From IMG/VR virus record IMGVR_UViG_3300045988_092923, positions 1-34,818 of that record: DNA of 34,818 nucleotides; one strand, written 5' to 3'. The stretch is from a virus. Below the pieces are notes generated by a model. It was not told where the DNA came from and did not search any database. It saw only the letters and a program-made list of their open reading frames with translations. The position numbers and the translations under genes are program-made. Positions 1 through 34,818 of the stretch are shown in pieces. Within the stretch, counting starts at the first letter, position 1, and each line of letters starts with the position of its first letter.

Positions 1-89
1 CGACCCAGGAGCGCAGGCGCTCGGCGAGAATGCATGGGCGGCGCAGGTCACTTGGAAGACGCGCTGTCAACTCGTCACCCTGACGCACG
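1..89. repeat. Terminal direct repeat, copy A (identical to 34730..34818); circular-assembly overlap
   Basis: Read directly. cgacccaggagcgcaggcgctcggcgagaatgcatgggcggcgcaggtcacttggaagacgcgctgtcaactcgtcaccctgacgcacg occurs at both window ends. Confidence 0.95.
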
Positions 90-2283: not shown

Positions 2284-2587
2284 ACATTCTACCACGCAGA
2301 AACCTCCTGAGCTGCTTGGCGGGTGATGTGCGCTCGTAATGCATTCTTCTCGCTATCGTCTCCCAGCTCTTGCCCTCAAGGAACCTCATGACGGCGATTG
2401 CCCTGATTCGCGCGTCTGGTATCGTCGCGATGAAGGCCATGACCTCAAGCCTCGCCGACTCAACGGCCCTCGCCTGCCTGTCTATCGCCCTCAACACGTC
2501 CACGCTTTGCTCGCGGCTCGCAACCCTGCGGAGCGCGTCCAACTCCGCCTGTAGGCTGCGGGCCTGCGAAAGCTCGCGCTCGGTCAC
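2282..2587 (-). CDS. Sigma-70 region-4-like HTH regulator (DUF1492 / ArpU-RinA-type small phage regulator)
   Basis: The 101-aa protein has an N-terminal coiled segment. It then carries IRAIAVMRFLEGKSWETIARRMHYERTSPAKQLRRFL, which resembles a region-4 HTH. The GTG start overlaps the DnaC-like stop (GTGA). Confidence 0.5.
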   Translation of the reverse strand: MTERELSQARSLQAELDALRRVASREQSVDVLRAIDRQARAVESARLEVMAFIATIPDARIRAIAVMRFLEGKSWETIARRMHYERTSPAKQLRRFLRGRM

Positions 2588-3423
2588 AGTCCCAGAATCT
2601 CCTTGGCTGCTGCCGTCCTCGCGGCGTAGTCAGAACGTCGGCGGTCTTGCCCGTTGAATGGCACTGGAACGCACATGTCCATGATGCGGCTGTAGATTCG
2701 CTGCTCGCCTATCCCGTCCGCCACCATGAGGTCGCGTGGGTTGATGTTCGTCGTGACTATAAGTGGCAGCTTGGAGCGATAACGGGCGTCTATCACGGCA
2801 GTGACCTGCTCCGTCATGTACTCGGTCTTCCTCTCGGTCGCGAAGTCATCGATAATCAGCAGGTCGAACCTCTGTAGGCTGTCGATGTACTCCTGCTTTC
2901 CAGAGAACCCGTTCGAGAGCTTGTTCACGATGCGCTGGAAGTTGGTCATGAGGCACGGCGTCCCGCTCTCTATCAGGGCGTTTGCTATGCATGCGGCGGC
3001 GAAGCTCTTCCCGCTGCCGACGTTGCCATAGAGCATCAGCCCCGTGCCGTTCTCCAGCATCTCTGGGAACTTCTCGACGTACCTCTTCATGGCCGCCATC
3101 GTCTTGGCGTCCTTGCCATCATCGTTGGCGAACGTCCACTCCCTCATCTCGGAGTCTGGGAAGCCAGTGCGGCGCATCCTGTCTACGCGCTGCATCCTCT
3201 CTCGTGCGCGCTCTTCCTCCTTCTGCCGCTCTTCGGCCTCCACCTCGCACTTGCACATGCAGTAGGGTTTGATTATCCTCCCGTTGAACTCGACCTCGCA
3301 CTGCTTTGGCGTGTGGCACTTACCACAGTAGAGAAGGCCGTCCTTGATGTAATCGTCCCCCTGCGGCTTGTGGTTCTTCTCCGCAGCCTTTGCCAGTCCC
3401 TCTATTATTCCGTCAATCTTCAT
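2584..3423 (-). CDS. DnaC/IstB-like AAA+ helicase loader
   Basis: Walker A is GNVGSGKSFAAACIANAL and Walker B is LLIIDDFATE. An N-terminal CxxC...C cluster is present. The RBS is agagaggaaggaaaacgATG. Confidence 0.85.
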   Translation of the reverse strand: MKIDGIIEGLAKAAEKNHKPQGDDYIKDGLLYCGKCHTPKQCEVEFNGRIIKPYCMCKCEVEAEERQKEEERARERMQRVDRMRRTGFPDSEMREWTFANDDGKDAKTMAAMKRYVEKFPEMLENGTGLMLYGNVGSGKSFAAACIANALIESGTPCLMTNFQRIVNKLSNGFSGKQEYIDSLQRFDLLIIDDFATERKTEYMTEQVTAVIDARYRSKLPLIVTTNINPRDLMVADGIGEQRIYSRIMDMCVPVPFNGQDRRRSDYAARTAAAKEILGL

Positions 3424-3438: not shown

Positions 3439-4200
3439 CTATCGCGTCTTTGGCGCGTACTTTCCAAGTCCCAGAACCTTGTCAACCTCTTCGTCTCCAG
3501 TGCTCTGGTAGTAATAATCGGCGTCTATCTTCTTGTCGAATCCGCTCGTTGTTTCACGTGAAACCTTCTTGATGCTTCTATCGCGTCTCGCCCAGTTCCG
3601 AATCGTCGCCAGATGGTTCTTGTAGCTCTTTCCAGTAGAAGCCATGTAGGCGCTGAGCCTTTCAATTCTCTCTTCCCAGTCCGTGGGGAACTCGGCTTTG
3701 AGCTTCTCCAAATCGGTATCGCTGAGAAGGACGTTGGAGTATTCGCCGTACTTGTGGCGCGTCTCCTTCTTCGGTGCCTCCATATCTGGTTTATTAGGTG
3801 TGGTTACATCTGTGTTTATATCTGGTATAGGTTCGCCCTCGTGGGCATTTTCATTTTCCCTGTAGGCAAAATTCATTTGCCCTTTTGTACAAATGGAAAG
3901 TCCCTTTTCGGCAAGTGCATACCACCTCGTGCGGTCATAGGCCGACTTGTTGTAGTTGCCGACCAGAATCATCCCGCCATCTTCCAGCTTCTTCAACGCT
4001 CCGCGAATCTGTTTGTCAGTGAGGTATGGAAACAGCTCAGCAAATGCCCTGACCGAGTTGTATGTCCAGTACCTGCCGTCGTGGAAGTTTGTCTCGTTGG
4101 CGCGGTTGTGCTCAATCCAGTACGCGAGGTTCTGGAAGATGATTGCCGCATTGACCCCGTACTCTTTGGCGATTTGCGGGTCGAACATGTGTAGTGCCAT
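3439..4200 (-). CDS. DnaD-like / phage replisome organizer replication protein
   Basis: The N-terminal winged-helix-like segment is GVNAAIIFQNLAYWIEHNRANETNFHDGRYWTYNSVRAFAELFPYLTDKQIRGALKKLEDGGMI. The C-terminal segment YKNHLATIRNWARRD is typical of DnaD-domain proteins. The gene sits adjacent to the DnaC-like loader. Confidence 0.75.
   Translation of the reverse strand: MALHMFDPQIAKEYGVNAAIIFQNLAYWIEHNRANETNFHDGRYWTYNSVRAFAELFPYLTDKQIRGALKKLEDGGMILVGNYNKSAYDRTRWYALAEKGLSICTKGQMNFAYRENENAHEGEPIPDINTDVTTPNKPDMEAPKKETRHKYGEYSNVLLSDTDLEKLKAEFPTDWEERIERLSAYMASTGKSYKNHLATIRNWARRDRSIKKVSRETTSGFDKKIDADYYYQSTGDEEVDKVLGLGKYAPKTR
3550..3565. promoter_or_regulatory. parS-like site 1 (TGTTTCACGTGAAACc, 15/16 to the consensus parS)
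   Basis: The 14-bp perfect palindrome GTTTCACGTGAAAC lies at 3551-3564. It is inside the DnaD-like CDS, where it encodes VSRET in a linker. Confidence 0.7.
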
Positions 4201-4328: not shown

Positions 4329-4357
4329 ATTATAGCATCACGATTCCTCGATGTTGA
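4329..4357 (-). promoter_or_regulatory. Putative promoter with extended -10: TCAACA (4352-4357), 17 nt, TGcTATAAT (4329-4337)
   Basis: Minus strand reads aTCAACAtcgaggaatcgtgaTGcTATAATatgg. It overlaps the 3' end of the DUF1064 gene, upstream of the hairpin and the DnaD-like gene. Confidence 0.5.
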
Positions 4358-4682
4358 TGTGGTTGAGGTACGCCATCAATTTTTTCTTGAGGCGGTACTC
4401 TTGAGTTTTAATGCCCTTAACGTCCTCGACTACCTGCTTTCCGTCTCGGTAATAAACGAAGTCGGCGATGTACCTCATGCCCCTGTACTTCACCCCGTCG
4501 CACTCGAAGCTCGGCAGAATCTCGAAGGGCACCTGAAGGCGAAGCCCCTGAATCCTTCCAGCATCCTGCATGTCGCGGAGCTTGACGTATCGCTTCGCTT
4601 CCTTGGCACTGTCGAACTCGATTCCGTCAACGACCGTCTTCTTCGCGTGATATTTACTTGCCCGTCGAGCCAAAGCCGTCAT
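4338..4682 (-). CDS. DUF1064-domain protein (YqaN-like, putative nuclease/resolvase fold)
   Basis: KYHAKKTVVDGIEFDSAKEAKRYVKLRDMQDAGRIQGLRLQVPFEI...YIADFVYY matches the DUF1064 pattern. The start MTALARR follows the RBS ggagaggggagATG. Confidence 0.7.
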   Translation of the reverse strand: MTALARRASKYHAKKTVVDGIEFDSAKEAKRYVKLRDMQDAGRIQGLRLQVPFEILPSFECDGVKYRGMRYIADFVYYRDGKQVVEDVKGIKTQEYRLKKKLMAYLNHINIEES

Positions 4683-5064
4683 CTCCCCTCTCCGAGTCCT
4701 CAAGCTCGTCAACGCGCTCGAAACCCACGTAGGCGCATGGCATGATTACCAGCTGCGTTACCTTGTCACCGCGCAGAACGTGATATGGCGCGTCGCTGTG
4801 GTTGTAGAGCTTTACCTTGATTGGCCCCGTGTATCCCTCGTCTATGACTCCCTCGGACGTGATTCCATGTCTCGTGTTGAGTCCAGACTTGCTCTTGAGC
4901 ATCCCAACATAGCCGTGCGGCAGCTGGATATGGACTCCCGTGTCGATGACGCGAGAACCCCTCGCTGGAACCATCGCGTCAATCGGCGAGCGCAGGTCCG
5001 CCCCAGCGTCCGTCTCGTGTGCCCTCACTGGCATGAATGACCCTGCGTCTAGCTTAATCTTCAC
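4654..5064 (-). CDS. dut: dUTP diphosphatase (trimeric dUTPase)
   Basis: Motifs seen are AGADL, GVIDEGYTG, RGDKVTQLV and the C-terminal RGDDGFGSTG. The GTG start (VKIKLDAGS...) follows gggagggaagagc. The track ORF N-terminal extension to 5256 overlaps the upstream gene and is rejected. Confidence 0.9.
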   Translation of the reverse strand: MKIKLDAGSFMPVRAHETDAGADLRSPIDAMVPARGSRVIDTGVHIQLPHGYVGMLKSKSGLNTRHGITSEGVIDEGYTGPIKVKLYNHSDAPYHVLRGDKVTQLVIMPCAYVGFERVDELEDSERGDDGFGSTGK

Positions 5065-5281
5065 GCTCTTCCCTCCCGAAGCTGTATCGTGCGTACCTGA
5101 CCTTCTGGCCGTACCGATTGAATGCGTGCTCTCGCTCCTTGTGTATGTCGTGACCATCGTCCCTGAGCGCGAACACGACAGCCGCGAGCCTTGTGACTCC
5201 CAAGTCCTTGAACGCATCGACTGGCGTGATGCTACCGAACTCTCGTATGTAGTCAAGGACCATCTGTTTCTGACTTGCCAT
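5054..5281 (-). CDS. Winged-helix DNA-binding protein (HTH_39-like)
   Basis: The 75-aa protein reads ...GSITPVDAFKDLGVTRLAAVVFALRDDGHDIHKEREHAFNRYGQKVRYARY, resembling the PF14090-type pattern. The RBS is gagaggggggaagcgATG. Confidence 0.5.
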   Translation of the reverse strand: MASQKQMVLDYIREFGSITPVDAFKDLGVTRLAAVVFALRDDGHDIHKEREHAFNRYGQKVRYARYSFGREERED

Positions 5282-5295
5282 CGCTTCCCCCCTCT

Positions 5296-5610
5296 CTAAA
5301 CGTAGCTCCTTCCGATTATCTTCATCCAGTCATCGAGCGACCATCCGTAGTGCTCCATTGCTCGCCGCTGCGACACCTCCTGCAGGTACGTCTCGAACGG
5401 GCGATTGAAGTGAACACCGTAGCTCGCCATGTTGTGCGCATCTGGAGGCAGGAACACGTACAAGCCGTACTCGATTGACTTCTGTCGGTTCGGCCCGTGA
5501 AAGACCTCGTGCCGCACCAACCACGGCTCGCGCTCGTCGAACCACTGAATCATGATGCCGTGGCGCTCGTCGTACCACTCGCCGCACCCCAGAACGCTGT
5601 GCTCCTTCAT
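5296..5610 (-). CDS. Hypothetical protein (104 aa)
   Basis: The start MKEHSVLGCGEWYDERHG... follows the RBS ggagggcgaggaATG, with an ATGA overlap on the upstream stop. Confidence 0.65.
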   Translation of the reverse strand: MKEHSVLGCGEWYDERHGIMIQWFDEREPWLVRHEVFHGPNRQKSIEYGLYVFLPPDAHNMASYGVHFNRPFETYLQEVSQRRAMEHYGWSLDDWMKIIGRSYV

Positions 5611-25997: not shown

Positions 25998-27689
25998 TTA
26001 GATAACCTGAATCGTGAATCCGCCCTGTCCGAAAATCACGTCCTGCTGTAGCAAGTATACGGCGTTTATCAGGGCAACGACCATATCGACCTTGCCCTTG
26101 CTCTTCTTCTTGTGGACATACATGTTTTTGTTGGTGTCGTATGAGCAGCGGGCATTCTGGAAGTTGATTTCGAGCAGCTTGTTGTCTGTGTACTCGAACT
26201 CGCCGCAAAGAATCTTCTCCTTCAGAAGCTTCGTCGGCGGATGGAGCACGGAGCTGTGCTGCCTGATTTCGACCGTATTGTAGCCAGCGCCTTCCAGCTT
26301 CTGCGCCGTGCTGAGAGCGTTCCATCGGTCGTAGCCGATTGCCTGCACCTGCACGCCGAACCTCTTCTCGATGCCGAGAATGAAGTCCTCGACAACCTTG
26401 TAGTCGATAACCCTGTCCCCGCATGCTATGCACTTCCCAGCGCGGATGAACTCGTTGTAGTCGATTTTCTCGTATGCGTTCTTCTCGGGAATGCGGCCCT
26501 CTGGCACGAAAGCGAAAACATCGGCGAGGATGTTGCCGTCATCGTCTGCGGCAACCATCGCCACGGCAGTGTTGTCGTTCGTCTCCGAAAGGTCTAGCCC
26601 CAGATACACGACGCGGCCGCGCCAGTCGATGTTCGCAACCTTGCAAGCCTGCACGTCAGCAACGTCGATGAACGTCTCCGTGCCCTGTCCCTGATAGATG
26701 ATATTGCAGTGCTTGGTGAGAAAGTTCTCGCGTGCCGATTCGACCGCGATAGCGTAGGCGCGTTTCTTCTTCAGGTCTTCCCATATTTCGGGTATCTCCA
26801 AGCTGACTGGGTTCGCCTGACGCATGACCAAATCGTCCGTCATCCAGTCCTTGGTTTCGTCTGGCTCGTAGAGCAATGCGAACAACGTATCGTCATCGGC
26901 AATTCCGTCGAGAACCTTCTTGGCGTACGCAACCTCGTCCTCGAACGGGTTGTCGATGGTCGGATACTTGGTCGAGATGATGAAGCCAAGTTTGTTCAGG
27001 ATGTTGAGCTGGCCCGACTTCATGGCTTCGATGGCATAGCTGGTCGGCAGCGCCCCAACCTCGTCCGCGCAGAACGCGCTTGGAAGTCTGCCGTCCATCC
27101 TCGAAGTCGAATAGCTCAGGGGGACGTATGTCGAACTCTTCGGCTTGAAGGTGATGTAGTCGCGCAGAATCTTGAAACGTTTGTTTCCCTTGTACTCGTA
27201 CACCAGAGGTGACGAGCGCAGCGTCTGCGATATGGCTTCGCGAATCTGCCTTGACAGTGCGCCGTCTGGTGCGACCGAGAAGAACTCAGCGAATCGCGGC
27301 TCGGTCAGCATGAGGATGATGAAGATGGTCGCGACGGTATAAGTCTTGAAGTTCTTGCGTGCGATTTCCAGCAGCCCGATTTCGTAGCGCCGCTTCTCGG
27401 GATTGTCGCGGTAGACGGTGCACAGGACTGCCGTGTACAGCAACCATTGGTACCCAGTCGTGCACTCGTAAAGCGTCTGCCCAGCCTTCAGGCCCTTGGG
27501 CATGACGAGCAGCTTGAGAATCGACTCCATCTGGCGAATCTTTGCGTCGCTCACGAGGTACTTGTCGCTCTTGCCGTCGCATACGTCCATCCAAAGGCGC
27601 ATCTGCTTCTTGACGTACTTCGGGGTGGTGTCCGCGTCTATCGTGCGCTCGCAGTACTCGTAGCCCCTATTCCTCGCCATCGCTGTCAC
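25998..27689 (-). CDS. terL: Terminase large subunit (Terminase_1 type)
   Basis: The 563-aa protein starts ...YEYCERTIDADTTPKYVKKQMRLWMDVCDGK, typical of this family. It has ATPase and nuclease halves (LGLDLSETNDNTAVAMV). An alternative ATG lies at 27680. Confidence 0.9.
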   Translation of the reverse strand: MTAMARNRGYEYCERTIDADTTPKYVKKQMRLWMDVCDGKSDKYLVSDAKIRQMESILKLLVMPKGLKAGQTLYECTTGYQWLLYTAVLCTVYRDNPEKRRYEIGLLEIARKNFKTYTVATIFIILMLTEPRFAEFFSVAPDGALSRQIREAISQTLRSSPLVYEYKGNKRFKILRDYITFKPKSSTYVPLSYSTSRMDGRLPSAFCADEVGALPTSYAIEAMKSGQLNILNKLGFIISTKYPTIDNPFEDEVAYAKKVLDGIADDDTLFALLYEPDETKDWMTDDLVMRQANPVSLEIPEIWEDLKKKRAYAIAVESARENFLTKHCNIIYQGQGTETFIDVADVQACKVANIDWRGRVVYLGLDLSETNDNTAVAMVAADDDGNILADVFAFVPEGRIPEKNAYEKIDYNEFIRAGKCIACGDRVIDYKVVEDFILGIEKRFGVQVQAIGYDRWNALSTAQKLEGAGYNTVEIRQHSSVLHPPTKLLKEKILCGEFEYTDNKLLEINFQNARCSYDTNKNMYVHKKKSKGKVDMVVALINAVYLLQQDVIFGQGGFTIQVI

Positions 27690-28038
27690 CGTTGATTATC
27701 GCCATGAGCGGGTCGTAGTCTGAGTCGCGTTCCTCGTCCTCCTTGGCGAATCCCTTGATGATTTTCATGAGAGTGGTGACCGTGCGGTTGGCCGAGTCCG
27801 TAGTCTTGTTGTACTCGGTCACGGCTGGGTTCACGTAGATGTTGGCGCGACCCTTGACGTACTCCTTCGTAACGAGCGTTCCAGTCTCGCGGATTGCCGC
27901 TTCAAGCTCGGTGAGATTGTTGAGCTGCACCTGGTAGCGTTTGAACGTGGTCATGAAGAAGAAGTTTGTCTGTACGCCCGTCTCTTCTGCTATCTTCAGG
28001 ATTTCCTGCGCCTGCTCGTTAAGGCTTTTCTTTGCCAT
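27667..28038 (-). CDS. terS: Terminase small subunit, P27 family
   Basis: ...LVTKEYVKGRANIYVNPAVTEYNKTTDSANRTVTTLMKII is P27-like. The gene lies immediately upstream of terL with RBS cggaggtaggacATG. Confidence 0.8.
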   Translation of the reverse strand: MAKKSLNEQAQEILKIAEETGVQTNFFFMTTFKRYQVQLNNLTELEAAIRETGTLVTKEYVKGRANIYVNPAVTEYNKTTDSANRTVTTLMKIIKGFAKEDEERDSDYDPLMAIINGDSDGEE

Positions 28039-28041
28039 GTC

Positions 28042-28890
28042 CTACCTCCGTTTTCTGTATCTGTCGCTGATGATTTTCGGGACGCATTTGTTCCAATCTA
28101 CCCGATGGTGCATCCTTCGGTGGTGCGCACCCATCTCCGCAACCCTCACGGCCTGCGGCGCGACGATGACGCTGTAGAACGACTTGACGTATGTGCCGTA
28201 GTCGAGGTAAAGGGTTGTCATGCCTTCAGCATTCTTTTGGGTCTGCGCCTGCGTAATCTGCGTGTTGGTGATGGTGAAGAACAGCTTGCCTTGGTTCCCC
28301 AGCATGACGTAAGTGTTAGTATCCTCGTTCACCCTGCCGACGAATCGGAACGGTCTGTCGGTCTTCAGGAACCATACGTTCATTGCCTTGCGCGAAAGCC
28401 CTTGGTGGAAGAAACGATTTGCACCGCCTATCAGGTGACCGCCCTGCGCAAGAGCAACGGCAAGCGCACCGCTCGTGTCAAGGAACCCGAAGCAGTCCTC
28501 GAAGAGCCTGTCCAAATCGTCGCAGTACTTGCTCTTGAGCTGCGCACCACTCAGGAACCTGAACATGAAGTAGCCGTAATCGTCATCGAGGACAACGAAG
28601 TGGGCAAGGCCCAGCCGCTTCGCTATGTTGAAGCACTCGTTGCGGGCGTACACCACTCCGCGATGGTCTTCAACTGCGTCCGCCGTGTCCGTCCACTTTG
28701 CGACCTCGGACTTGTCGAACTGAATCACCATATCGCCGTAGCGGCTCTTGTACTCTTCCGCGCTATCGTCCTCGTTGTCGATGATGATGTACGTGTCACC
28801 GCTGTAGTTGCCCTTCTTCAGGGCATTGATGGTTGCGATGTTGTCTGGCCTTCCATGCGAGACGATGAACACCGCGTAATCACTCGCCAT
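28042..28890 (-). CDS. GT-A-like glycosyltransferase-fold protein, paralogue 2 (282 aa)
   Basis: The start MASDYAVFIVSHGRPD follows gggaggtggcgcaagaATG. YIIIDNEDDSAEEY and a DxD motif in HFVVLDDDYGYF resemble a GT-A Rossmann core. The protein is clearly paralogous to the upstream gene and has the basic tail RYRKRR. Confidence 0.5.
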   Translation of the reverse strand: MASDYAVFIVSHGRPDNIATINALKKGNYSGDTYIIIDNEDDSAEEYKSRYGDMVIQFDKSEVAKWTDTADAVEDHRGVVYARNECFNIAKRLGLAHFVVLDDDYGYFMFRFLSGAQLKSKYCDDLDRLFEDCFGFLDTSGALAVALAQGGHLIGGANRFFHQGLSRKAMNVWFLKTDRPFRFVGRVNEDTNTYVMLGNQGKLFFTITNTQITQAQTQKNAEGMTTLYLDYGTYVKSFYSVIVAPQAVRVAEMGAHHRRMHHRVDWNKCVPKIISDRYRKRR

Positions 28891-29722
28891 TCTTGCGCCA
28901 CCTCCCGCTGACAATCTTCGGATAGAGAAGCGCCTTGCTCTTTCGCAGGCTCGTGCCGTCCCTCTTGACGATGACCTTCAGTCCGCTCGGGTCGATTATC
29001 ACTGAGTAGAAGTCGCGCACGTACTGCTTGTTGTCATCGTACAGGCTGTGAAGACCGCCGTCGTTGGTTCCGCGCTGCGGTGAATTCTTCGTTATTGCAT
29101 ATGCTTCGAGCATGACCTTCCCAGCATCCTTGCCAAGCAGCAGCGCGTTCATGTCCTCGTTGAGGATGCCGACGAACTTCAGCCTGTCACTGGCTCGAAC
29201 CACCAGCGCCTGGTTGATGTTCCAGCACATACCGTTCCCGTACACTCCCGCAAGCCCGCCTATGAGCGCACCGCTCGATGCGATGTTGAGCGACGTTACG
29301 CCCGTCGTTTCAAGGAACCCGACCATGGACTCGAACAGCCCATCGAAGTCGGTGACTGGTGCCGACACGAGCCTGCCGCCCTTGACGTACCTGAACGTGA
29401 ACTGGCTCAGGTCATCATCGAACATAGCGAAGTAGCTCAGCCCCAAATCGTCCGCGATGTCGTATGCTGCGTTCCTTGCGAACACGACGGAGCGAAGCTC
29501 GTCTTCGGTTGTCATGGTATCTACGCGCTTGGAGTACTCGCGCTTGTCGAACACGATGACGCTGTCACCGTAAAGCCGTTCGTACTCTGCCCTCTGCTCG
29601 TCAAGGTCATCGATGATGAGATACGCCTTGCCAGAATATCCGTGCTTCTCCAACTCATGGAACGTCACTTGGTCGTGCGCCCTTCCATTCGTGAGAATCA
29701 GCACCGCGAAGTCGCTACGCAT
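28880..29722 (-). CDS. GT-A-like glycosyltransferase-fold protein, paralogue 1 (280 aa)
   Basis: The start MRSDFAVLILTNGRAHD follows ggtgaggacgATG and overlaps the ParB-like stop. The protein carries YLIIDDLDEQRAEY and a DxD in YFAMFDDDLSQF. By eye it is roughly 35-40% identical to paralogue 2 over the N-terminal 110 aa. Confidence 0.5.
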   Translation of the reverse strand: MRSDFAVLILTNGRAHDQVTFHELEKHGYSGKAYLIIDDLDEQRAEYERLYGDSVIVFDKREYSKRVDTMTTEDELRSVVFARNAAYDIADDLGLSYFAMFDDDLSQFTFRYVKGGRLVSAPVTDFDGLFESMVGFLETTGVTSLNIASSGALIGGLAGVYGNGMCWNINQALVVRASDRLKFVGILNEDMNALLLGKDAGKVMLEAYAITKNSPQRGTNDGGLHSLYDDNKQYVRDFYSVIIDPSGLKVIVKRDGTSLRKSKALLYPKIVSGRWRKNGE

Positions 29723-30461
29723 CGTCCTCACCGCTCATGAAGTCGATGTCCTCGGCAAGCTTCGCGTATCCCTTGGCGATTGCGTCATCGACGTCGATTA
29801 TGACGAGCGCCGAGTCCTCCATAAGCTCCTGCATCTCTGGCGTCGCGTTGGCGTAGTACTCAGCGACGTTCCTGTAGTTGAAGGCATAGTGTCGTGTGGC
29901 TGCCTTGATTAGGAACTCGCGTTCCTCGGGCGTGACGTTCGAGTCCTGAATCCTCATGACCAGCTCATTGGCCTTCGAATCGTCAACCAGCTCGTCGATG
30001 GATGGGCACTCGCCAGTCGGCTCGTACTGCGGTATGTTCACCTTCTTGGTGTAGGTATCGTCAGCCTGCGGCTCGTCCTCTTCCAGCTCTTCGAAGTCGA
30101 ACCCGAAGTCAGACATGTCGATGTCCTCGATGCCATCAAGCTCGATGCCCAGCTTCGCCATGTCCCACTGTGCAAGCTCGCCAGTCTTGTTGTCGGCCAG
30201 ACGGAACGCCTTCACCTGCTCGGGCGTCAAATCGTCCGCCACGATGACGGGAACCTGCTTCAACCCCAGCTTGTGCGCAGCCTTCAGGCGTGTATGCCCG
30301 TTGATGATGACGTTCTCGCCGTCAACGACGATTGGAACCTTGAAGCCGAACTCCTTGATGCTAGCAGCCACCGCATCGACCGCGTTGTCGTTCAATCGCG
30401 GGTTGTTCGCGTACGGAATCAGTGAATCGACGTCCATATACGTCACTTTGGTCTTGTTCAT
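29715..30461 (-). CDS. ParB N-terminal-domain (ParB/Srx) protein
   Basis: VDSLIPYANNPRLNDNAVDAVAASIKEFGFKVPIVVDGENVIINGHTRLKAAHKLG is a ParBc-type N-terminal domain. An acidic linker follows, then a helical C-terminal region (EEREFLIKAATRHYAFNYRNVAEYY). No canonical GERRxR box or obvious ParB HTH was recognised. The RBS is gagaaaggagcaatcagggcATG. Confidence 0.75.
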   Translation of the reverse strand: MNKTKVTYMDVDSLIPYANNPRLNDNAVDAVAASIKEFGFKVPIVVDGENVIINGHTRLKAAHKLGLKQVPVIVADDLTPEQVKAFRLADNKTGELAQWDMAKLGIELDGIEDIDMSDFGFDFEELEEDEPQADDTYTKKVNIPQYEPTGECPSIDELVDDSKANELVMRIQDSNVTPEEREFLIKAATRHYAFNYRNVAEYYANATPEMQELMEDSALVIIDVDDAIAKGYAKLAEDIDFMSGEDDA

Positions 30462-30487
30462 GCCCTGATTGCTCCTTTCTCATACAT

Positions 30488-30510
30488 GGGGCGCCCGTTC
30501 TGAGCGCCCC
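30488..30510. other. GC hairpin in the 5' leader of the ParB-like gene
   Basis: GGGGCGC (30488-30494) pairs with GCGCCCC (30504-30510) around a 9-nt loop. There is no T-tract on either strand. Confidence 0.5.
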
Positions 30511-30731
30511 TGTAGAAAACTTGCCGATAATTGGCTTATTTGAATGATAATTGTAGAAAAGTTTCCAACATTGTAGAAAATCCAAGTTTCCAACATTGTA
30601 GAAAATCCAAAAAACCCCAGCAGATGAAAAACTTTTTTTCTTCTCTAGGCAGGTTAGATAGCCCGCAGGCTCAGTTTTCGACACTTTCGACAGGGGGGGG
30701 ATTGTAGAAAAGTTTTCGACATTGTAGAAAA
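30510..30731. repeat. Iteron-like array: ATTGTAGAAAA x5 plus CTGTAGAAAA x1
   Basis: Copies lie at 30510-19 (degenerate), 30550-60, 30570-80, 30595-605, 30701-11 and 30721-31. The associated sub-repeats are GTTTCCAAC x2 and TTTTCGAC / TTTCGAC x3. A central segment of about 95 bp is A/T-tract-rich. Confidence 0.9.
30693..30700. repeat. G8 homopolymer tract abutting iteron R4
   Basis: Read directly as cagggggggg attgtagaaaa. Confidence 0.9.
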
Positions 30732-30767
30732 GTCCCGTAGACCACGTGGTAGCCAAGGTCTGTCCGT

Positions 30768-31151
30768 CTACCGCGTAGCTCCCCGAATCCTCTTCGCCGC
30801 AAGCCCTCTCAGGTATCCCTTGGACAGCTCCCCATCGTCCGCCATCCTGTGATGCTTCCTGCACAGGCATATGAGGTTGTCATCCTCGAGCAGTCCGTCT
30901 GGGTCTTCGCGTAGCTTGTCTATGTGGTGGACCTCAAGCCCCTGCGTGGTGACCTTCCCTTGGTCCCTGCACACCTCGCACATCCAGTGCGCATCGTCTC
31001 GCACCTGTAGGCTCTTCCTCTTCCACCTTGAGGTGAAGCGCAGCCTGTCCGCACCAGTCCTCTCGTACCTGTATGTAGGCTTCTTCCTCGGGCATGGCTG
31101 GTCGTATGGGTGAATCCGCCCACATCGTGGGCAGGCCCTGTATGCCCCCAT
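30768..31151 (-). CDS. HNH endonuclease (packaging-associated type)
   Basis: CPRCGRIH...C, then EVHHIDKLREDPDGLLEDDNLICLCRKHH, is an HNH motif. The RBS is gagggggaggtgattcgATG. HK97-like cos phages commonly encode such an HNH near the terminase genes. Confidence 0.85.
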   Translation of the reverse strand: MGAYRACPRCGRIHPYDQPCPRKKPTYRYERTGADRLRFTSRWKRKSLQVRDDAHWMCEVCRDQGKVTTQGLEVHHIDKLREDPDGLLEDDNLICLCRKHHRMADDGELSKGYLRGLAAKRIRGATR

Positions 31152-31289: not shown

Positions 31290-32117
31290 CTAGAATCGGC
31301 CTGCGTTGAGCGCTTCCTGCATCTTCCTCACCGTGTTACTGGGCGCTCCAAGGTAGCCGTCCGCATTGAATCCGTAGTGACGTTCCAGTGCGTTGATTGT
31401 CTGCCGTCCAAGGATGCCGTCCGCATAGACCCCAAGCGCCCTCTGCATCTTGGTAACGAGCTGCGACCCCTGCGGATTCCTCACCCACTCGAAGCCGCCA
31501 GTGCAGGCATTGAGAATCGAGCGGTTGCCCGCGTACTGCGAGGAAACCACGCCATCAATCGGAGTCCCGAAGTGCCTTTGCAGCGCCCTTGTGGTGGCAG
31601 GTCCCCAGTAGCCATCGACGTCAATCTTTCCGCTAGGCTGTGCGGGCCTTGGCTCCGTCTGCGCTCCCGTGTATCGAAGTATGCAGTCCCAGCCATGACG
31701 ATATACGTAGACCCTTCGCTCGTTGGTCTCCCCGCCAGTCTGGTCACCTGCTCGGCCACCACTGGCCTTGCCGCGCTCGTCAATGGATGCCTGAGCGATG
31801 ATGGCGTTCCTTCCATGACCTCGCACAACCATGCACACGTGATGCGTGTCGTTGAGCAGGATGTCGCCAGGCTGAAGCGTGCTCAGGTCAGGCGGAAGTC
31901 GCTTCCAGCCGTGCTTTGTGAGGTTCGCCGAAAGGTTGCCAGTGTAGGTCGCTCCGCCAGTCGCGAACCCAGCCTGACGCAGGGCGTAGATTACGAGCGA
32001 GCTGCAATCGCACTCGCCGCCGTTGCGAATGTCCCAGCGGTTGCTCTGGTCGTATCCGAGCGACCACACGCGAGCTGCCTTGTCCATCACCGCGATTGCC
32101 TTACTGATGCTTGGCAT
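31290..32117 (-). CDS. Endolysin: NlpC/P60- or CHAP-like cysteine peptidase plus C-terminal peptidoglycan-binding repeats
   Basis: The catalytic-like residues are ECDCSSLVIYALRQAG and DTHHVCMVV. The C-terminus has two DG..G..T..ALQR/ALER repeats (PG_binding_1-like). The gene lies downstream of the holin. An alternative start lies at 32153. Confidence 0.8.
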   Translation of the reverse strand: MPSISKAIAVMDKAARVWSLGYDQSNRWDIRNGGECDCSSLVIYALRQAGFATGGATYTGNLSANLTKHGWKRLPPDLSTLQPGDILLNDTHHVCMVVRGHGRNAIIAQASIDERGKASGGRAGDQTGGETNERRVYVYRHGWDCILRYTGAQTEPRPAQPSGKIDVDGYWGPATTRALQRHFGTPIDGVVSSQYAGNRSILNACTGGFEWVRNPQGSQLVTKMQRALGVYADGILGRQTINALERHYGFNADGYLGAPSNTVRKMQEALNAGRF

Positions 32118-32271
32118 GCCGAACCTCGCTTTCGTAAACGTCGTGCTCCACATGAAGGCAGCGAGGGCACTGCCAGTCCTGACGCCTTTTGCCCTCGCCT
32201 GCCGACCTTCTGACCTCTACCATCGGAGCGCCGCACATGATGCACGTCCTCTTCTCTGGCAGACTACGCAT
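32101..32271 (-). CDS. Possible zinc-ribbon protein (56 aa) between holin and endolysin
   Basis: MRSLPEKRTCIMCGAPMVEVRRSAGEGKRRQDWQCPRCLHVEHDVYESEVRHAKHQ contains a CxxC...CxxC pair. Its start overlaps the holin stop, and its stop overlaps the endolysin start. Confidence 0.4.
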   Translation of the reverse strand: MRSLPEKRTCIMCGAPMVEVRRSAGEGKRRQDWQCPRCLHVEHDVYESEVRHAKHQ

Positions 32272-32680
32272 TCGAGTCGCCCTTTCCATCATGAACCTCG
32301 TTAATCCAGTCGAGGACGTGCCAGTCAGCTAGCTCTGGATTGAGCTTCACGAGATTCTCGGCGCAGCTCACGAGTTCGTTGATGCACAGGAGGACGATGA
32401 CGGACGTTAGAATCGGAGCGCTGTAGCCGAGGTTGACTCCGCCCAGCAGCATGCCATCAGAGATGTCGGCGATTATGACCACTCCCACCTCGCTCGCCTT
32501 GTGCCAGATGCCCTCGCGCATCACAGATGACTTTACTCGCCCCTTCTTGGCCGCTGCGGAGAATCCGAAGACCATGTCGAGAAGCATAAGGGCGAAGAGC
32601 GCGACAAGAACGACCTGCGCCGTCTGGTTGTCCCTTATCGGGCTGATGAAAACGTCTATGGCATGCGGTGGATTGGGCAT
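32264..32680 (-). CDS. Holin (Phage_holin_4_1 / TcdE-like family)
   Basis: TM segments are present, with GIWHKASEVGVVIIADISD and INELVSCAENL motifs typical of that family. The RBS is aggagacgattaaaATG. Confidence 0.8.
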   Translation of the reverse strand: MPNPPHAIDVFISPIRDNQTAQVVLVALFALMLLDMVFGFSAAAKKGRVKSSVMREGIWHKASEVGVVIIADISDGMLLGGVNLGYSAPILTSVIVLLCINELVSCAENLVKLNPELADWHVLDWINEVHDGKGDSNA

Positions 32681-32692
32681 TTTAATCGTCTC

Positions 32693-32983
32693 CTAGTGGC
32701 CTTTCTCAAGGCCGTAAACGTCTGCATTACGGAGAAAATTATACCGCACCACCTGCGGGAATTGTGGGAACGAGAAAGAAACACTCGAATTTGAATCGAG
32801 GACGTGGAACTGACCGCAGAGCTTGACCCATATCGAACCATCTTCTGCAACATAGGCGTTACGGGTGTACCAACGGGAACCATCGAGAAACTCTACCTTG
32901 CCTTCCTTGCGGATGTTCTTCGTTCCTGCAAGCTGATACCTGCTAAAAGCGTTCTCTGCCTTGTAAACGTTGATGGTCTTCAT
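32693..32983 (-). CDS. Hypothetical protein (96 aa), first gene after promoter cassette P3
   Basis: The RBS is agaaagggacttgcaATG. GC content is visibly lower than in neighbouring genes. No motif was recognised. Confidence 0.65.
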   Translation of the reverse strand: MKTINVYKAENAFSRYQLAGTKNIRKEGKVEFLDGSRWYTRNAYVAEDGSIWVKLCGQFHVLDSNSSVSFSFPQFPQVVRYNFLRNADVYGLEKGH

Positions 32984-33009
32984 TGCAAGTCCCTTTCTCT
33001 CTTTCCCTT

Positions 33010-33075
33010 CTTGCTGATACTAGTATACACCTATACAATGCGAAGTGAAGCGAGAAATTGGGATTTTTTTCAACC
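33010..33075 (-). promoter_or_regulatory. Promoter cassette P3: -35 TTCACT (33044-33049), 16 nt, -10 TATACT (33022-33027), with an upstream A-tract
   Basis: Minus strand reads gaaaaaaatcccaatttctcgcTTCACTtcgcattgtataggtgTATACTagtatcagcaag. The stretch ATAGGTGTATACTAGTATCAGCAAG is identical to P2. Confidence 0.65.
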
Positions 33076-33237
33076 TCGCGACCTCCTGAGCGCCGCCCTT
33101 ATCGAGTCCTTGCTGCGGCAAAGGAACTCGGCAAGCTCGGCAACCGTCGCCCCCATGTCGAACGCCTCTCGTATCTGCTGGTCGGTCGCTCGCGGCGGTC
33201 CGTCGAACTCACGCTTCATGTCCTCTTCGTCCATCAT
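33070..33237 (-). CDS. Small HTH-like protein (55 aa)
   Basis: Hand translation gives MMDEEDMKREFDGPPRATDQQIREAFDMGATVAELAEFLCRSKDSIRAALRRSRG. There is an ATGA overlap with the upstream RHH gene stop. Confidence 0.5.
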   Translation of the reverse strand: MMDEEDMKREFDGPPRATDQQIREAFDMGATVAELAEFLCRSKDSIRAALRRSRG

Positions 33238-33416
33238 TGCGCGCCCCTCTCGATGTCCGCCCGAATCAGTCCCTTGATGTACCCTTGGACGTTTCCAGTT
33301 CCGAGAAGCCGCTCGATTACGTCCTCGTCAGTCCGCTTGTTGAGCTTAAGATGAATTTGCTTCGTGTGTGCCTTGTCGTACTTGTATCCAGCCTTCAGCT
33401 GCGCTTCCGTAGCCAT
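33234..33416 (-). CDS. Ribbon-helix-helix (Arc/CopG-like) protein
   Basis: KQIHLKLNKRTDEDVIERLLGTGNVQGYIKGLIRADIE fits a beta-strand / helix / helix RHH layout. The RBS is ggaggtgatttgggATG. Confidence 0.55.
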   Translation of the reverse strand: MATEAQLKAGYKYDKAHTKQIHLKLNKRTDEDVIERLLGTGNVQGYIKGLIRADIERGAQ

Positions 33417-33433
33417 CCCAAATCACCTCCAGT

Positions 33434-33517
33434 CGCTAAGACATCCAGAATAACGCGCACGCAAAAAGAAACACATGTGCGAGCACATACAGAACGTATG
33501 CAACGGTATCAAGAATC
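33434..33517 (-). CDS. Possible 27-aa hydrophobic peptide
   Basis: MILDTVAYVLYVLAHVFLFACALFWMS, with a TGATG overlap on the upstream stop. The ORF is very short. Confidence 0.25.
33475..33488. promoter_or_regulatory. Inverted repeat ATGTGC-N2-GCACAT sharing the ATGTGCTC half-site with the switch operators
   Basis: The plus strand reads ATGTGCGAGCACAT and the minus strand ATGTGCTCGCACAT. It lies upstream of the RHH gene. Confidence 0.4.
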
Positions 33518-33518
33518 A

Positions 33519-33818
33519 TCACTCGTCATCACCTTCTGCATAATCGACAACCCTCGCACCACATGCTGGGCAATAGCTTGTCTTTGCCTTCATCTCCGGG
33601 AACCACGTGAAGCACCTGTCGCATCCAAATCCTCCGTCGTGCGACGGCCACAGATGGCACGTTGGGTCGATGAGGTCTGCGAGGTAGTCTGCGCCAATGC
33701 CGGTGTTCTCACAGTTGCCATCAAGCTCGTCCTCGCCAATCGGCTCGCCAAGCAGCACGAGCCATCCGGCGTGCTTCCTCAGCCGCTCCGCCACCTCGCG
33801 GCGCTCGTTTCTACTCAT
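33519..33818 (-). CDS. Hypothetical protein with C-terminal zinc-ribbon-like CxxC pairs (99 aa)
   Basis: The start MSRNERREVAERLRKHAG... follows gggaggggagcaATG. The protein carries GCDRC...CPACGARV. The Arg/Ser/Thr-rich N-terminal extension of the track ORF (to 34058) is rejected. Confidence 0.65.
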   Translation of the reverse strand: MSRNERREVAERLRKHAGWLVLLGEPIGEDELDGNCENTGIGADYLADLIDPTCHLWPSHDGGFGCDRCFTWFPEMKAKTSYCPACGARVVDYAEGDDE

Positions 33819-34074
33819 TGCTCCCCTCCCATCCGTCACACTCGTTGTCGGTCGCAAACTCCGCGCGCGAATGGCGGCACCACGCGTGCGAGAGAATCCG
33901 CACCGCCGCGACCTCGCCGAGGTTGTAGTACACGTCGTAGACATCCGATTCGGCGACGAAGCTAGCGCACGACAGGCACTGAGCGCCCACCCTCTCGCAC
34001 AGCTCGTGCGCGCGGTCGCACAGCTCGCGCTCGAAGTCGCTCGCGTCCTCCGCCCCAACCTCGCTAGGACTCAT
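33811..34074 (-). CDS. Hypothetical Cys-rich protein (87 aa)
   Basis: The ORF is coupled at both ends: its ATG overlaps the upstream TGA, and its stop overlaps the downstream ATG. Confidence 0.6.
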   Translation of the reverse strand: MSPSEVGAEDASDFERELCDRAHELCERVGAQCLSCASFVAESDVYDVYYNLGEVAAVRILSHAWCRHSRAEFATDNECDGWEGSNE

Positions 34075-34223
34075 CGCACGTCACCGTCACTTTCACCTAT
34101 TCGTCGCAAACCAAGGCAGTTTCCGCAGAAATTCGTCGAATATGTCATCAGATTCCTCCGAAATCGCGCCAGCGGATGATGCGGGCGCTGCAGCGCGAAC
34201 AGCAGCCAGTCAAGTGCTGTCAT
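34071..34223 (-). CDS. Possible small protein (50 aa)
   Basis: Hand translation gives MTALDWLLFALQRPHHPLARFRRNLMTYSTNFCGNCLGLRRIGESDGDVR. There are ATGA overlaps at both ends. Confidence 0.4.
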   Translation of the reverse strand: MTALDWLLFALQRPHHPLARFRRNLMTYSTNFCGNCLGLRRIGESDGDVR

Positions 34224-34450
34224 CGGTCCTCGTCCTCCACGTATCGTATGTCGAGGTGCGATTGGTCTTTGACGTACAAATCTCGTATTAAATCCAGCAC
34301 CTCATGGCTTATGTGGTATCCGTGCGTGACGCATTCGAGCGTGGACATGTTGAAGCATTCGCAGCTGTCGCATGGCATCAAACCATACGCCTCAAGCGGG
34401 AAGCACCTCCAATAGCGAAAACGCCCTCCCAGGATTCCTTCAGTATTCAT
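34220..34450 (-). CDS. Hypothetical Cys-rich protein (76 aa)
   Basis: The start MNTEGILGGRFRYWRCFPLEAYGLMPCDSCECFN... follows ggacgggggcgagcgATG (ATGA overlap). The Arg-rich upstream part of track ORF 34220..34780 is rejected. Confidence 0.6.
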   Translation of the reverse strand: MNTEGILGGRFRYWRCFPLEAYGLMPCDSCECFNMSTLECVTHGYHISHEVLDLIRDLYVKDQSHLDIRYVEDEDR

Positions 34451-34650
34451 CGCTCGCCCCCGTCCATCATCAGGCCGAAGCGAAGGCTCGCGCCGTCGAG
34501 GTTCAGAATCGTCCCGTTCGCGTGCTCGCTGCACCACGCGAAGTAGCGCGCCATGTCCGCGTAGCTTCCGAAAATCATGGGTGCGACGCTCTCGTCGGCG
34601 TTGGTCATGATGATGACGGCCTTGGCGTCTGGCACGACTTTGAGCGCCAT
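34447..34650 (-). CDS. Hypothetical protein (67 aa)
   Basis: MALKVVPDAKAVIIMTNADESVAPMIFGSYADMARYFAWCSEHANGTILNLDG.... The RBS is gggggcgtggagtgATG, with a TGATG overlap on the upstream stop. Confidence 0.6.
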   Translation of the reverse strand: MALKVVPDAKAVIIMTNADESVAPMIFGSYADMARYFAWCSEHANGTILNLDGASLRFGLMMDGGER

Positions 34651-34818
34651 CACTCCACGCCCCCGTCCATCGCGTCGGCGATGCGGTCAAGCTCGCGCAG
34701 GTCCATGTGCTCGTCGTTTCGAGCACCCTCGACCCAGGAGCGCAGGCGCTCGGCGAGAATGCATGGGCGGCGCAGGTCACTTGGAAGACGCGCTGTCAAC
34801 TCGTCACCCTGACGCACG
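34650..34818 (-). CDS. 3' part of the junction-spanning 134-aa gene (same gene as 1..325)
   Basis: Hand translation gives ...LAERLRSWVEGARNDEHMDLRELDRIADAMDGGVE*, with TGA at 34650-34652. Confidence 0.6.
   Translation of the reverse strand, partial: VRQGDELTARLPSDLRRPCILAERLRSWVEGARNDEHMDLRELDRIADAMDGGVE
34730..34818. repeat. Terminal direct repeat, copy B (identical to 1..89)
   Basis: Read directly; see copy A. Confidence 0.95.

Follow-up and report, generated by a model that had tools for sequence, protein, structure and literature searches.

A predicted cos region with short repeats on both sides of the cut in a temperate gut siphophage

Among the packaging regions described so far, the closest to the one considered here belongs to the Lactobacillus delbrueckii phages c5, LL-Ku and Ld3 (genus Cequinquevirus), whose module is homologous and laid out in the same order: holin, endolysin, HNH-like ORF, cos, ParB nuclease, (glycosyltransferase), TerS-like ORF and TerL. 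The records of these Lactobacillus phages begin immediately upstream of the "putative ParB nuclease", which is followed by the TerS-like ORF and TerL, and they end with holin, endolysin and a 126-aa ORF. In the GenBank feature annotation of c5 and LL-Ku, positions 1..11 are a "cos site" (which in c5 reads AAACACCCGAA), and Ld3, which is from another group, starts at the same base as c5. In c5, ORF50 lies 94 nt from the right end and a C7 run (L155:1397-1403) precedes the annotated end by 35 nt, and the left end reads ...GGTTTTTTGGAAAAAGGTTTAT..., with a TTTTTTGGAAAA block after the end.

More generally, HNH genes beside terminase genes mark cos phages (PMC13595911). In HK97, the HNH protein (gp74) is encoded by the last gene before cos, the terminase genes are the first after it, and gp74 stimulates cos cleavage (review PMC13595911, citing Kala et al. 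2014, PMC4000778). The HK97 ends carry a 10-nt 3' overhang, and the HK97 TerS binds, via its central channel, a single 15-bp site (+15..+29), with no repeat array described there (PMC11331095). The cos of lambda (cosQ-cosN-cosB, with the gpNu1 R sites and an IHF site) is one in which the cut is flanked by short repeated protein-binding elements, with the lysis genes upstream and the terminase genes downstream (PMC13595911). There, the R sites are found only on the terminase-gene side, where a winged-helix TerS reads them, the overhangs are 12 nt long and 5', and there is no HNH partner. In the pac region of SPP1 (pacL-pacC-pacR), boxes bound by TerS flank the cleavage site on either side and presumably serve to loop the DNA.

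In this work we analyse a complete IMG/VR phage of 34,818 bp, whose terminal repeats are of the assembly type (a circular-type assembly), and the whole of which is referred to below as the window. The only indication of its host comes from Clostridia-class MAG hits, and it encodes a serine recombinase and a CI/Cro pair, which indicates a temperate phage. We concentrate on the 306-bp gap at 30462-30767, the largest one among the ORFs accepted as genes, and on the array of short repeats that it holds. For comparison, about 40 related viral contigs were found by searches with the ParB-like and HNH proteins, and 15 gaps were aligned.

Packaging genes and their neighbourhood

Nearly all genes of the window are on the minus strand where, in the order of reading, the holin (32680-32264), the endolysin (32153-31290) and the HNH endonuclease (30768..31151, 127 aa; Pfam HNH E=3.8e-6, PHROG 144) are followed by the gap, a ParB-N-domain protein, two glycosyltransferases, a TerS-like protein, TerL, portal, S78 protease and HK97-fold capsid. 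The HNH gene, the last one before the right end, terminates 306 nt ahead of the next gene, which is the ParB-N-domain gene (29715..30461, minus strand, Pfam ParB_N). This is the first gene of a 2.4-kb cargo cassette between cos and TerS, and two TAGT (TET-associated-type) glycosyltransferases (Pfam TAGT) come after it. The putative small terminase (27667..28038, minus strand, 123 aa) overlaps the start of the large terminase (25998..27689, minus strand; Pfam TerL_nuclease E=2e-41, and TerL_ATPase), and its position is that of ORF4 in c5. The matches to TerL_nuclease, TerL_ATPase, Phage_portal, Peptidase_S78 and Phage_capsid all exceed the curated cut-offs. On the circular map, the HNH gene is thus directly upstream of the packaging site and of the terminase genes, which is the arrangement of an HNH-assisted cos module.

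The assignment of the small terminase is based on its position, its size and the overlap with TerL, all of which fit a TerS; the profile link to known TerS families is weak (Terminase_4, E=1.4e-3, 19.4 bits against a curated cut-off of 24.7). No match was found for it in NCBIfam or among PDB sequences, its structural model (pLDDT 78) had no Foldseek match at E <= 0.001 (the G20c/P74-26 TerS chains appeared only at E ~1), and an hhalign comparison with gp1 of HK97 gave a probability of 0.1, that is, no detectable similarity.

The window TerL is 74% identical to those of c5, LL-Ku, Ld3, Ld17, Ld25A and phiLdb, and identities to c5 are 48% for the HNH protein (ORF50, the homologue being the 126-aa ORF of the Lactobacillus records), 58% for the TerS-like protein (ORF4) and 53% for ParB. 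The two groups differ in several respects: the c5 phages have a dairy Lactobacillus host, whereas the window phage has a gut Clostridia-type host, 56% GC and a temperate life style; the c5 gap is 183 nt long and contains GCTAC(G/A)AG-type repeats, whereas that of the window contains an 11-copy TGTNGAAAA array; and cos is annotated in GenBank for c5, but predicted by comparison for the window. The likeness to HK97 resides in the position of the HNH and terminase genes around cos and in the HK97-type portal, S78 protease and capsid, but the window TerS-like protein is dissimilar to gp1 and the cargo cassette separates cos from terS.

The content of this region varies among relatives. The interval between cos and terS (28042-30461 in the window) is a cargo hot spot, holding ParB and two TAGT glycosyltransferases in the window, the N-terminal half of ParB plus other genes in several relatives, and nothing in others; TerS comes directly after cos in the relatives L319, L177 and G011, and in relative G015 the slot (L325:11981-13053) is occupied by ATPase-like and GNAT-like genes, with no ParB homologue. 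Additionally, the lysis cassette and the small upstream genes (31290-34818 and 1-2000) have no homologues in seven close relatives, whose structural and replication genes are otherwise 85-97% identical to those of the window, and this stretch has the look of an exchanged module whose border is the HNH gene. With the exception of distant lysis genes, the genes in these intervals are not common to the window and G015. We also observed four canonical parS-like sites (GTTTCACGTGAAAC), with CACGTG cores at 3555, 19806, 23921 and 23966, two of which are 45 bp apart inside the prohead-protease gene.

The predicted cut and the genome ends

By sequence comparison, the gap is very probably the cos region, where the phage would cut replicated DNA into genome lengths. 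This reading is based on the homology with c5 and LL-Ku and on the ends of related linear contigs. The C7 run and the left-end block of c5 can be aligned with those of the window and of its gut relatives, which places the cohesive sequence at 30646-30656. The predicted cosN (11 nt, TAGGCAGGTTA on the plus strand and TAACCTGCCTA on the coding strand) lies in the core between the two repeat clusters, and a conserved GATAGCCC (30657-30664) adjoins it. On the coding strand, the order is C8, 36 nt, GGGCTATC / TAACCTGCCTA / GAGAAG...CTGCTGGGGTTTTTTGGA, with the slashes delimiting the cohesive sequence.

Five linear contigs with an estimated completeness of 96-100% have both of their ends inside the gap at the homologous position (G001, G002, G003, G011 and G012, the last being more distant). 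The end next to HNH reads ...GCTAT or ...GCCGC, and the opposite end lies 161-183 nt ahead of the first gene; two fragments (L012 and L014) begin at (C)TATCT. A random break in such a 20-nt window would be expected in about 1 of 1,600 contigs. When compared with their nearest circular relatives, the first four lack 11, 11, 16 and 17 nt, respectively, and in all four the lost nucleotides include the block aligned with the cos of c5. Since this block is lost, and not duplicated at both ends, as end-polishing does to a 3' overhang, we infer that the overhang is 3', which would be a further likeness to HK97. Fixed ends of the cos class are thus suggested, indirectly, by the contigs of the five linear relatives and by the c5/LL-Ku annotation at the aligned site. 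The preliminary description had proposed termini between 30600 and 30700 and a cos role for the gap next to the HNH gene, and both proposals agree with these comparisons.

The alignment of the 15 gaps reveals which elements are conserved around the cut: the C-run, the GCTATC at the cut (GGGCTATC), the sequence (A)TCTGCTGGGNTTTTTTGGA (CTGCTGGGNTTTTTTGGA), two (G/A)ATTATC repeats and the ribosome-binding region. In the window, the run is a G8 (30693-30700; C8 on the coding strand) ending 36 nt ahead of the predicted cut, and a C6-C9 run is present in every aligned relative. HK97 has a comparable G9 run 42 nt before its right end (L331), on the opposite strand to that of the window. The two ATTATC repeats (AATTATC in the window, 30526..30552, minus strand, 20 nt apart from start to start) are kept in every aligned relative, with a distance of about 21 nt in the alignment. 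The left-end block at 30606..30625 (ATCTGCTGGGGTTTTTTGGA on the coding strand) is nearly invariant in 15 of 15 relatives, and its T-run/GGA(AAA) part is recognisable at the left end of c5 and Ld3 (GGTTTTTTGGAAAAAGG in c5). Based on this conservation, the probable core recognition signals are the C/G run some 36 nt ahead of the cut, GGGCTATC, CTGCTGGGNTTTTTTGGA and the two ATTATC repeats; as the main element recognised by the terminase, the block at 30606..30625 is the strongest candidate.

The repeat array and its distribution among relatives

The preliminary description had listed five copies of ATTGTAGAAAA and one of CTGTAGAAAA, together with the G8 run, a GC hairpin and the palindrome ACCACGTGGT, and all of these are located where it had placed them. 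By sequence and pattern search, ATTGTAGAAAA is exact at 30550, 30570, 30595, 30701 and 30721; the 10-mer TTGTAGAAAA, correspondingly, is exact at 30551, 30571, 30596, 30702 and 30722, with an A before every copy. When up to one mismatch is allowed, the pattern search finds this 10-mer eight times in the 34.8 kb, six of them in the gap and two elsewhere, and none of 100 shuffles contained eight matches. The linkers between copies (GTTTCCAAC at 30561-69 and 30586-94, and GTTTTCGAC at 30712-20) are themselves inverted and slightly degenerate copies of the motif, and the true repeat unit is a 9-nt half-site, TGTNGAAAA. The pattern TGTNGAAA[ACG] has 11 matches genome-wide, nine of which are inside the gap, and with two TGTTGGAAA copies added the gap holds 11 half-sites, in both orientations. 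The centres of these half-sites are mostly 10 bp apart (about one helical turn), with alternating orientation, and the motif clusters nowhere else in the genome, which fits a role specific to cos rather than a regulon.

The half-sites flank the predicted cut on both sides. Those of the left flank (the ParB side, 30552..30605) are TGTAGAAAA at 30552, 30572 and 30597 on the plus strand and TGTTGGAAA at 30562 and 30587 on the minus strand, and this cluster contains an exact 25-bp tandem duplication. Those of the right flank (the HNH side, 30675..30731) are placed around the G8 run, with TGTAGAAAA at 30723 and 30703 on the plus strand, TGTCGAAAA at 30713 and 30675 on the minus strand, and TGTCGAAAG at 30684, also on the minus strand. 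An outlying half-site, CTGTAGAAAA (30510-30519), overlaps the 7-bp GC hairpin (30488-30510), in which GGGGCGC (30488-94) pairs with GCGCCCC (30504-10). The resulting block (30488..30519) is 22 nt upstream of the start codon of the ParB-like gene, and the hairpin could be an element of the 5'-UTR or one acting at the DNA level; in three relatives (L012, L014 and L319) its stem is retained via paired G-to-A and C-to-T changes (GGAGCGC...GCGCTCC). The 10-bp palindrome ACCACGTGGT (30741-30750) has a CCACGTGG core that is retained in relatives with the same type of right flank; we considered it as a parS and rejected it, given that its flanks are unlike those of the four GTTTCACGTGAAAC sites elsewhere in the genome. 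A 58-aa plus-strand ORF (30531-30707) was likewise discarded, being built of the repeats and not conserved in relatives. The gap matched no Rfam family, and its RNA folding is unremarkable (z = -1.3).

The full two-sided array is present in the window and in G015 (L158/L086), the latter being also the single relevant contig (L086) in a viral scan for the exact repeat pair. It is partial in four relatives (L157, L319, L012 and L014), three others (L013, L020 and L022) have a right-side-only version with TTTTCAACA, and another three (L037, L048 and G011) have three direct TGTYGAWAAC copies. The right-flank layout is common to the window, G015, L157, L319 and the right-side-only group. Conversely, two relatives (L003 and L049) have almost no array repeats, right flank included, which indicates that the array is dispensable for the phage family; its presence is not universal. 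In many of the array-less relatives, a G-run/C-run hairpin (GGGGGGGAACAATCCCCCCC) replaces the right-side repeats. On the left flank, G015 has a single-unit version in a 29-nt slot, where array-less relatives hold unrelated sequence. Between relatives the gap is a mosaic, in which the right flanks and the left fillers come in at least two alternative forms.

Beyond the family, a scan of metagenomes for TTTTCTACAAT-N5-14-TTTTCTACA gave 120 loci, none of them from the phage family of the window (one, L279, was set aside as an unrelated satellite-like tandem repeat). A similar motif was nevertheless found in an unrelated 41-kb phage (L314; IMGVR_UViG_3300045988_105254, 4339-5400), where four copies of TTTTCAAC and then ACAATCCCCCCC (with a C7 run) lie between HNH and TerS. 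The HNH protein of this phage is 37% identical to that of the window, and its TerS has no BLASTP similarity to the window TerS. The order of its genes is HNH, TTTTCAAC x4, C7, TerS, DUF6883, protease and capsid, with no TerL or portal between TerS and protease.

In order to relate the array to the proteins, every accepted window protein was compared with eight full relatives. Across these eight, we found no protein of the window, TerS, HNH and ParB included, that varied together with the array. In particular, the array-less relatives G006 and G008 have a TerS with 99% and 98% identity, respectively, to that of the window, and a ParB with 97-98% identity; in G015, where the array is present, the identity of TerS is 89%; and the HNH protein, with 83-92% identity across relatives (91% in array-less ones), does not sort by array type. 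Because a relative with a 99% identical TerS (G006) lacks the array, the array cannot be the specificity determinant of TerS, and the earlier suggestion that the repeats are R-sites for TerS gains no support, even though the cos role to which it was attached is retained. The single TerS site of HK97 agrees with a repeat array not being required. If TerS has a specific target, the conserved left-end block is the more likely one.

Alternative roles and the proposed mechanism

We consider it rather probable that the gap serves as cos in an HNH-assisted (HK97-type) module of a temperate gut siphophage, with the array as accessory or architectural packaging sites; for the array taken by itself, a function in packaging has slightly less than even odds. 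In the proposed mechanism, late transcription and packaging would both proceed on the minus strand, through holin, endolysin, HNH, cos, cargo cassette, TerS, TerL and portal. The terminase, aided by the HNH protein, would make staggered cuts at about 30646-30656, leaving an 11-nt cohesive end; the left end, packaged first, would be the ParB side and the right end the HNH side. The TGTAGAAAA array would be a lineage-specific expansion, with its 11 TGTNGAAAA half-sites on both sides of the cut, and these sites may help to assemble or position the packaging complex, for which TerS, TerL, HNH or a bending protein are candidates. A function for the array is supported by its presence on both sides of the cut, by the spacing of about a helical turn, by the fixed positions in genomes with 20-50% difference in most proteins and by its occurrence only at cos. 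The array would be loosely comparable to cosB/cosQ of lambda or to pacL/pacR of SPP1. However, the analogy has clear limits in both cases. A lambda-type cosB would have repeats between cosN and terS that go with TerS, whereas the half-sites of the window occupy both flanks of the cut, face either way and vary independently of TerS. SPP1, in which the boxes also flank the cleavage site, uses headful packaging and has no sequence relationship with the window, where the binding is hypothetical.

The first alternative is that the array has no specific function, having arisen incidentally as sequence was duplicated and recombined locally in a cos spacer that tolerates such changes. The exact 25-bp tandem duplication in the left cluster, the patchwork of alternative right flanks and left fillers among relatives, and the existence of relatives that, with near-identical TerS, ParB and HNH, manage without the array all point in this direction. 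Moreover, between the window and G015 the motif positions are 80% identical and the other positions of the gap 82%, meaning that the motif is no better conserved than its flanks and that no extra selection on it can be claimed. On the other hand, a single duplication could not yield half-sites that are spaced by about 10 bp, flank the cut on either side and face either way; the motif recurs at the same positions in G015, most of whose proteins are only 52-84% identical to those of the window; and a similar motif is present in the unrelated phage L314. On balance, we regard an origin of the array as a mere by-product as unlikely.

The array could also be a set of promoter or activator sites for the structural operon, recognised by the host sigma-A or with the help of the 101-aa HTH protein of the phage, since on the minus strand TTTTCTACAAT contains a -10-like TACAAT. 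The gap is indeed directly upstream of the ParB-TerS-TerL operon, and TCTACA-16-TACAAT, to which the preliminary description had drawn attention in proposing a late promoter, does occur twice on the minus strand (30728-30701 and 30577-30550). Nevertheless, these are only 9/12 matches, of which three were found in the region for 1.6 expected, and they follow from the spacing of the repeats. The gap of the array-less relative L161 has no promoter-like site, although the same operon must be expressed there, and the gene order mirrors that of lambda and c5, in both of which late transcripts begin ahead of the lysis genes and continue across cos. Only sub-threshold HTH/sigma matches were obtained for the 101-aa protein, which is equally present in array-less relatives. 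We regard a promoter role as quite improbable.

A third alternative is that the half-sites are bound by a host protein, either a nucleoid or bending factor, acting as IHF does at the cosB of lambda, or a regulator such as Spo0A (box TGTCGAA). This reading would account for an array that co-varies with no phage protein; its A4/T4 tracts and 10-bp spacing are typical of bent DNA, and IHF is required at the cos of lambda (PMC13595911). Three exact TGTCGAA boxes lie in 47 bp of the gap, but six of the 11 half-sites read TGTAGAA, and TGTCGAA occurs 15 times genome-wide. The Spo0A consensus is TGNCGAA, and the variable position of the motif is precisely the C retained in it. Furthermore, the window shares about 90% identity with array-less relatives in its tail and receptor-binding genes, suggesting the same host with a different array, and we judge host-protein sites to be very unlikely. 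A more specific variant, highly improbable in our estimate, is drawn by analogy with phi29: a host regulator would dock on the array at the ends of the genome, and the array would not be a terminase site. Phage phi29 reportedly uses Spo0A boxes and parS sites for its shutdown and for carriage into host spores, and in the window three exact TGTCGAA boxes and eight near-copies flank cosN, beside the four parS-like sites and the ParB-like gene found in the genome. If this were true, a phage of gut Clostridia would have its packaging or its late expression coupled to sporulation.

Centromere-like sites for the adjacent ParB-like protein, another suggestion of the preliminary description, can hardly be maintained. 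The ParB-N-domain gene is indeed adjacent, but the full array is present in G015, which has ATPase and GNAT genes instead of a ParB homologue, L319 has TerS directly after cos, and the 97-98% identical ParB proteins of G006 and G008 come without an array. The sites thus do not go together with ParB, and the four canonical GTTTCACGTGAAAC sites elsewhere in the genome are better candidates for binding by ParB or by the host Spo0J. Finally, the "iteron-like" label given to the array describes its appearance well (short repeated motifs around an A/T-rich core), but a replication origin has next to no probability, as nothing ties the gap to replication: there is no adjacent initiator gene, some 7 kb and the record junction separate the gap from the replication-type genes (a DnaC/IstB-like ATPase at 2584-3423 and its neighbours), most of the repeats form inverted pairs, and the core is where the genomes of relatives end.

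Taken as a packaging element, the region is ordinary in kind, with an unusually large set of short repeats for a cos gap. Its analysis, from sequence, locates the genome ends of an uncultured family of gut phages with a precision of a few bases and gives their orientation, and it identifies the ParB/glycosyltransferase cassette as a cargo insert at the cos-terS hot spot, outside the packaging signal. The repeat content of the cos flanks is swapped independently of the identity of TerS, HNH and ParB, which means that the repeats are not the primary specificity determinant. The gut phage family, c5 and HK97 have in common a G:C homopolymer run of 6-9 bp, located 35-42 nt before the right end, and this run may be a general signal of HNH-type cos sites.
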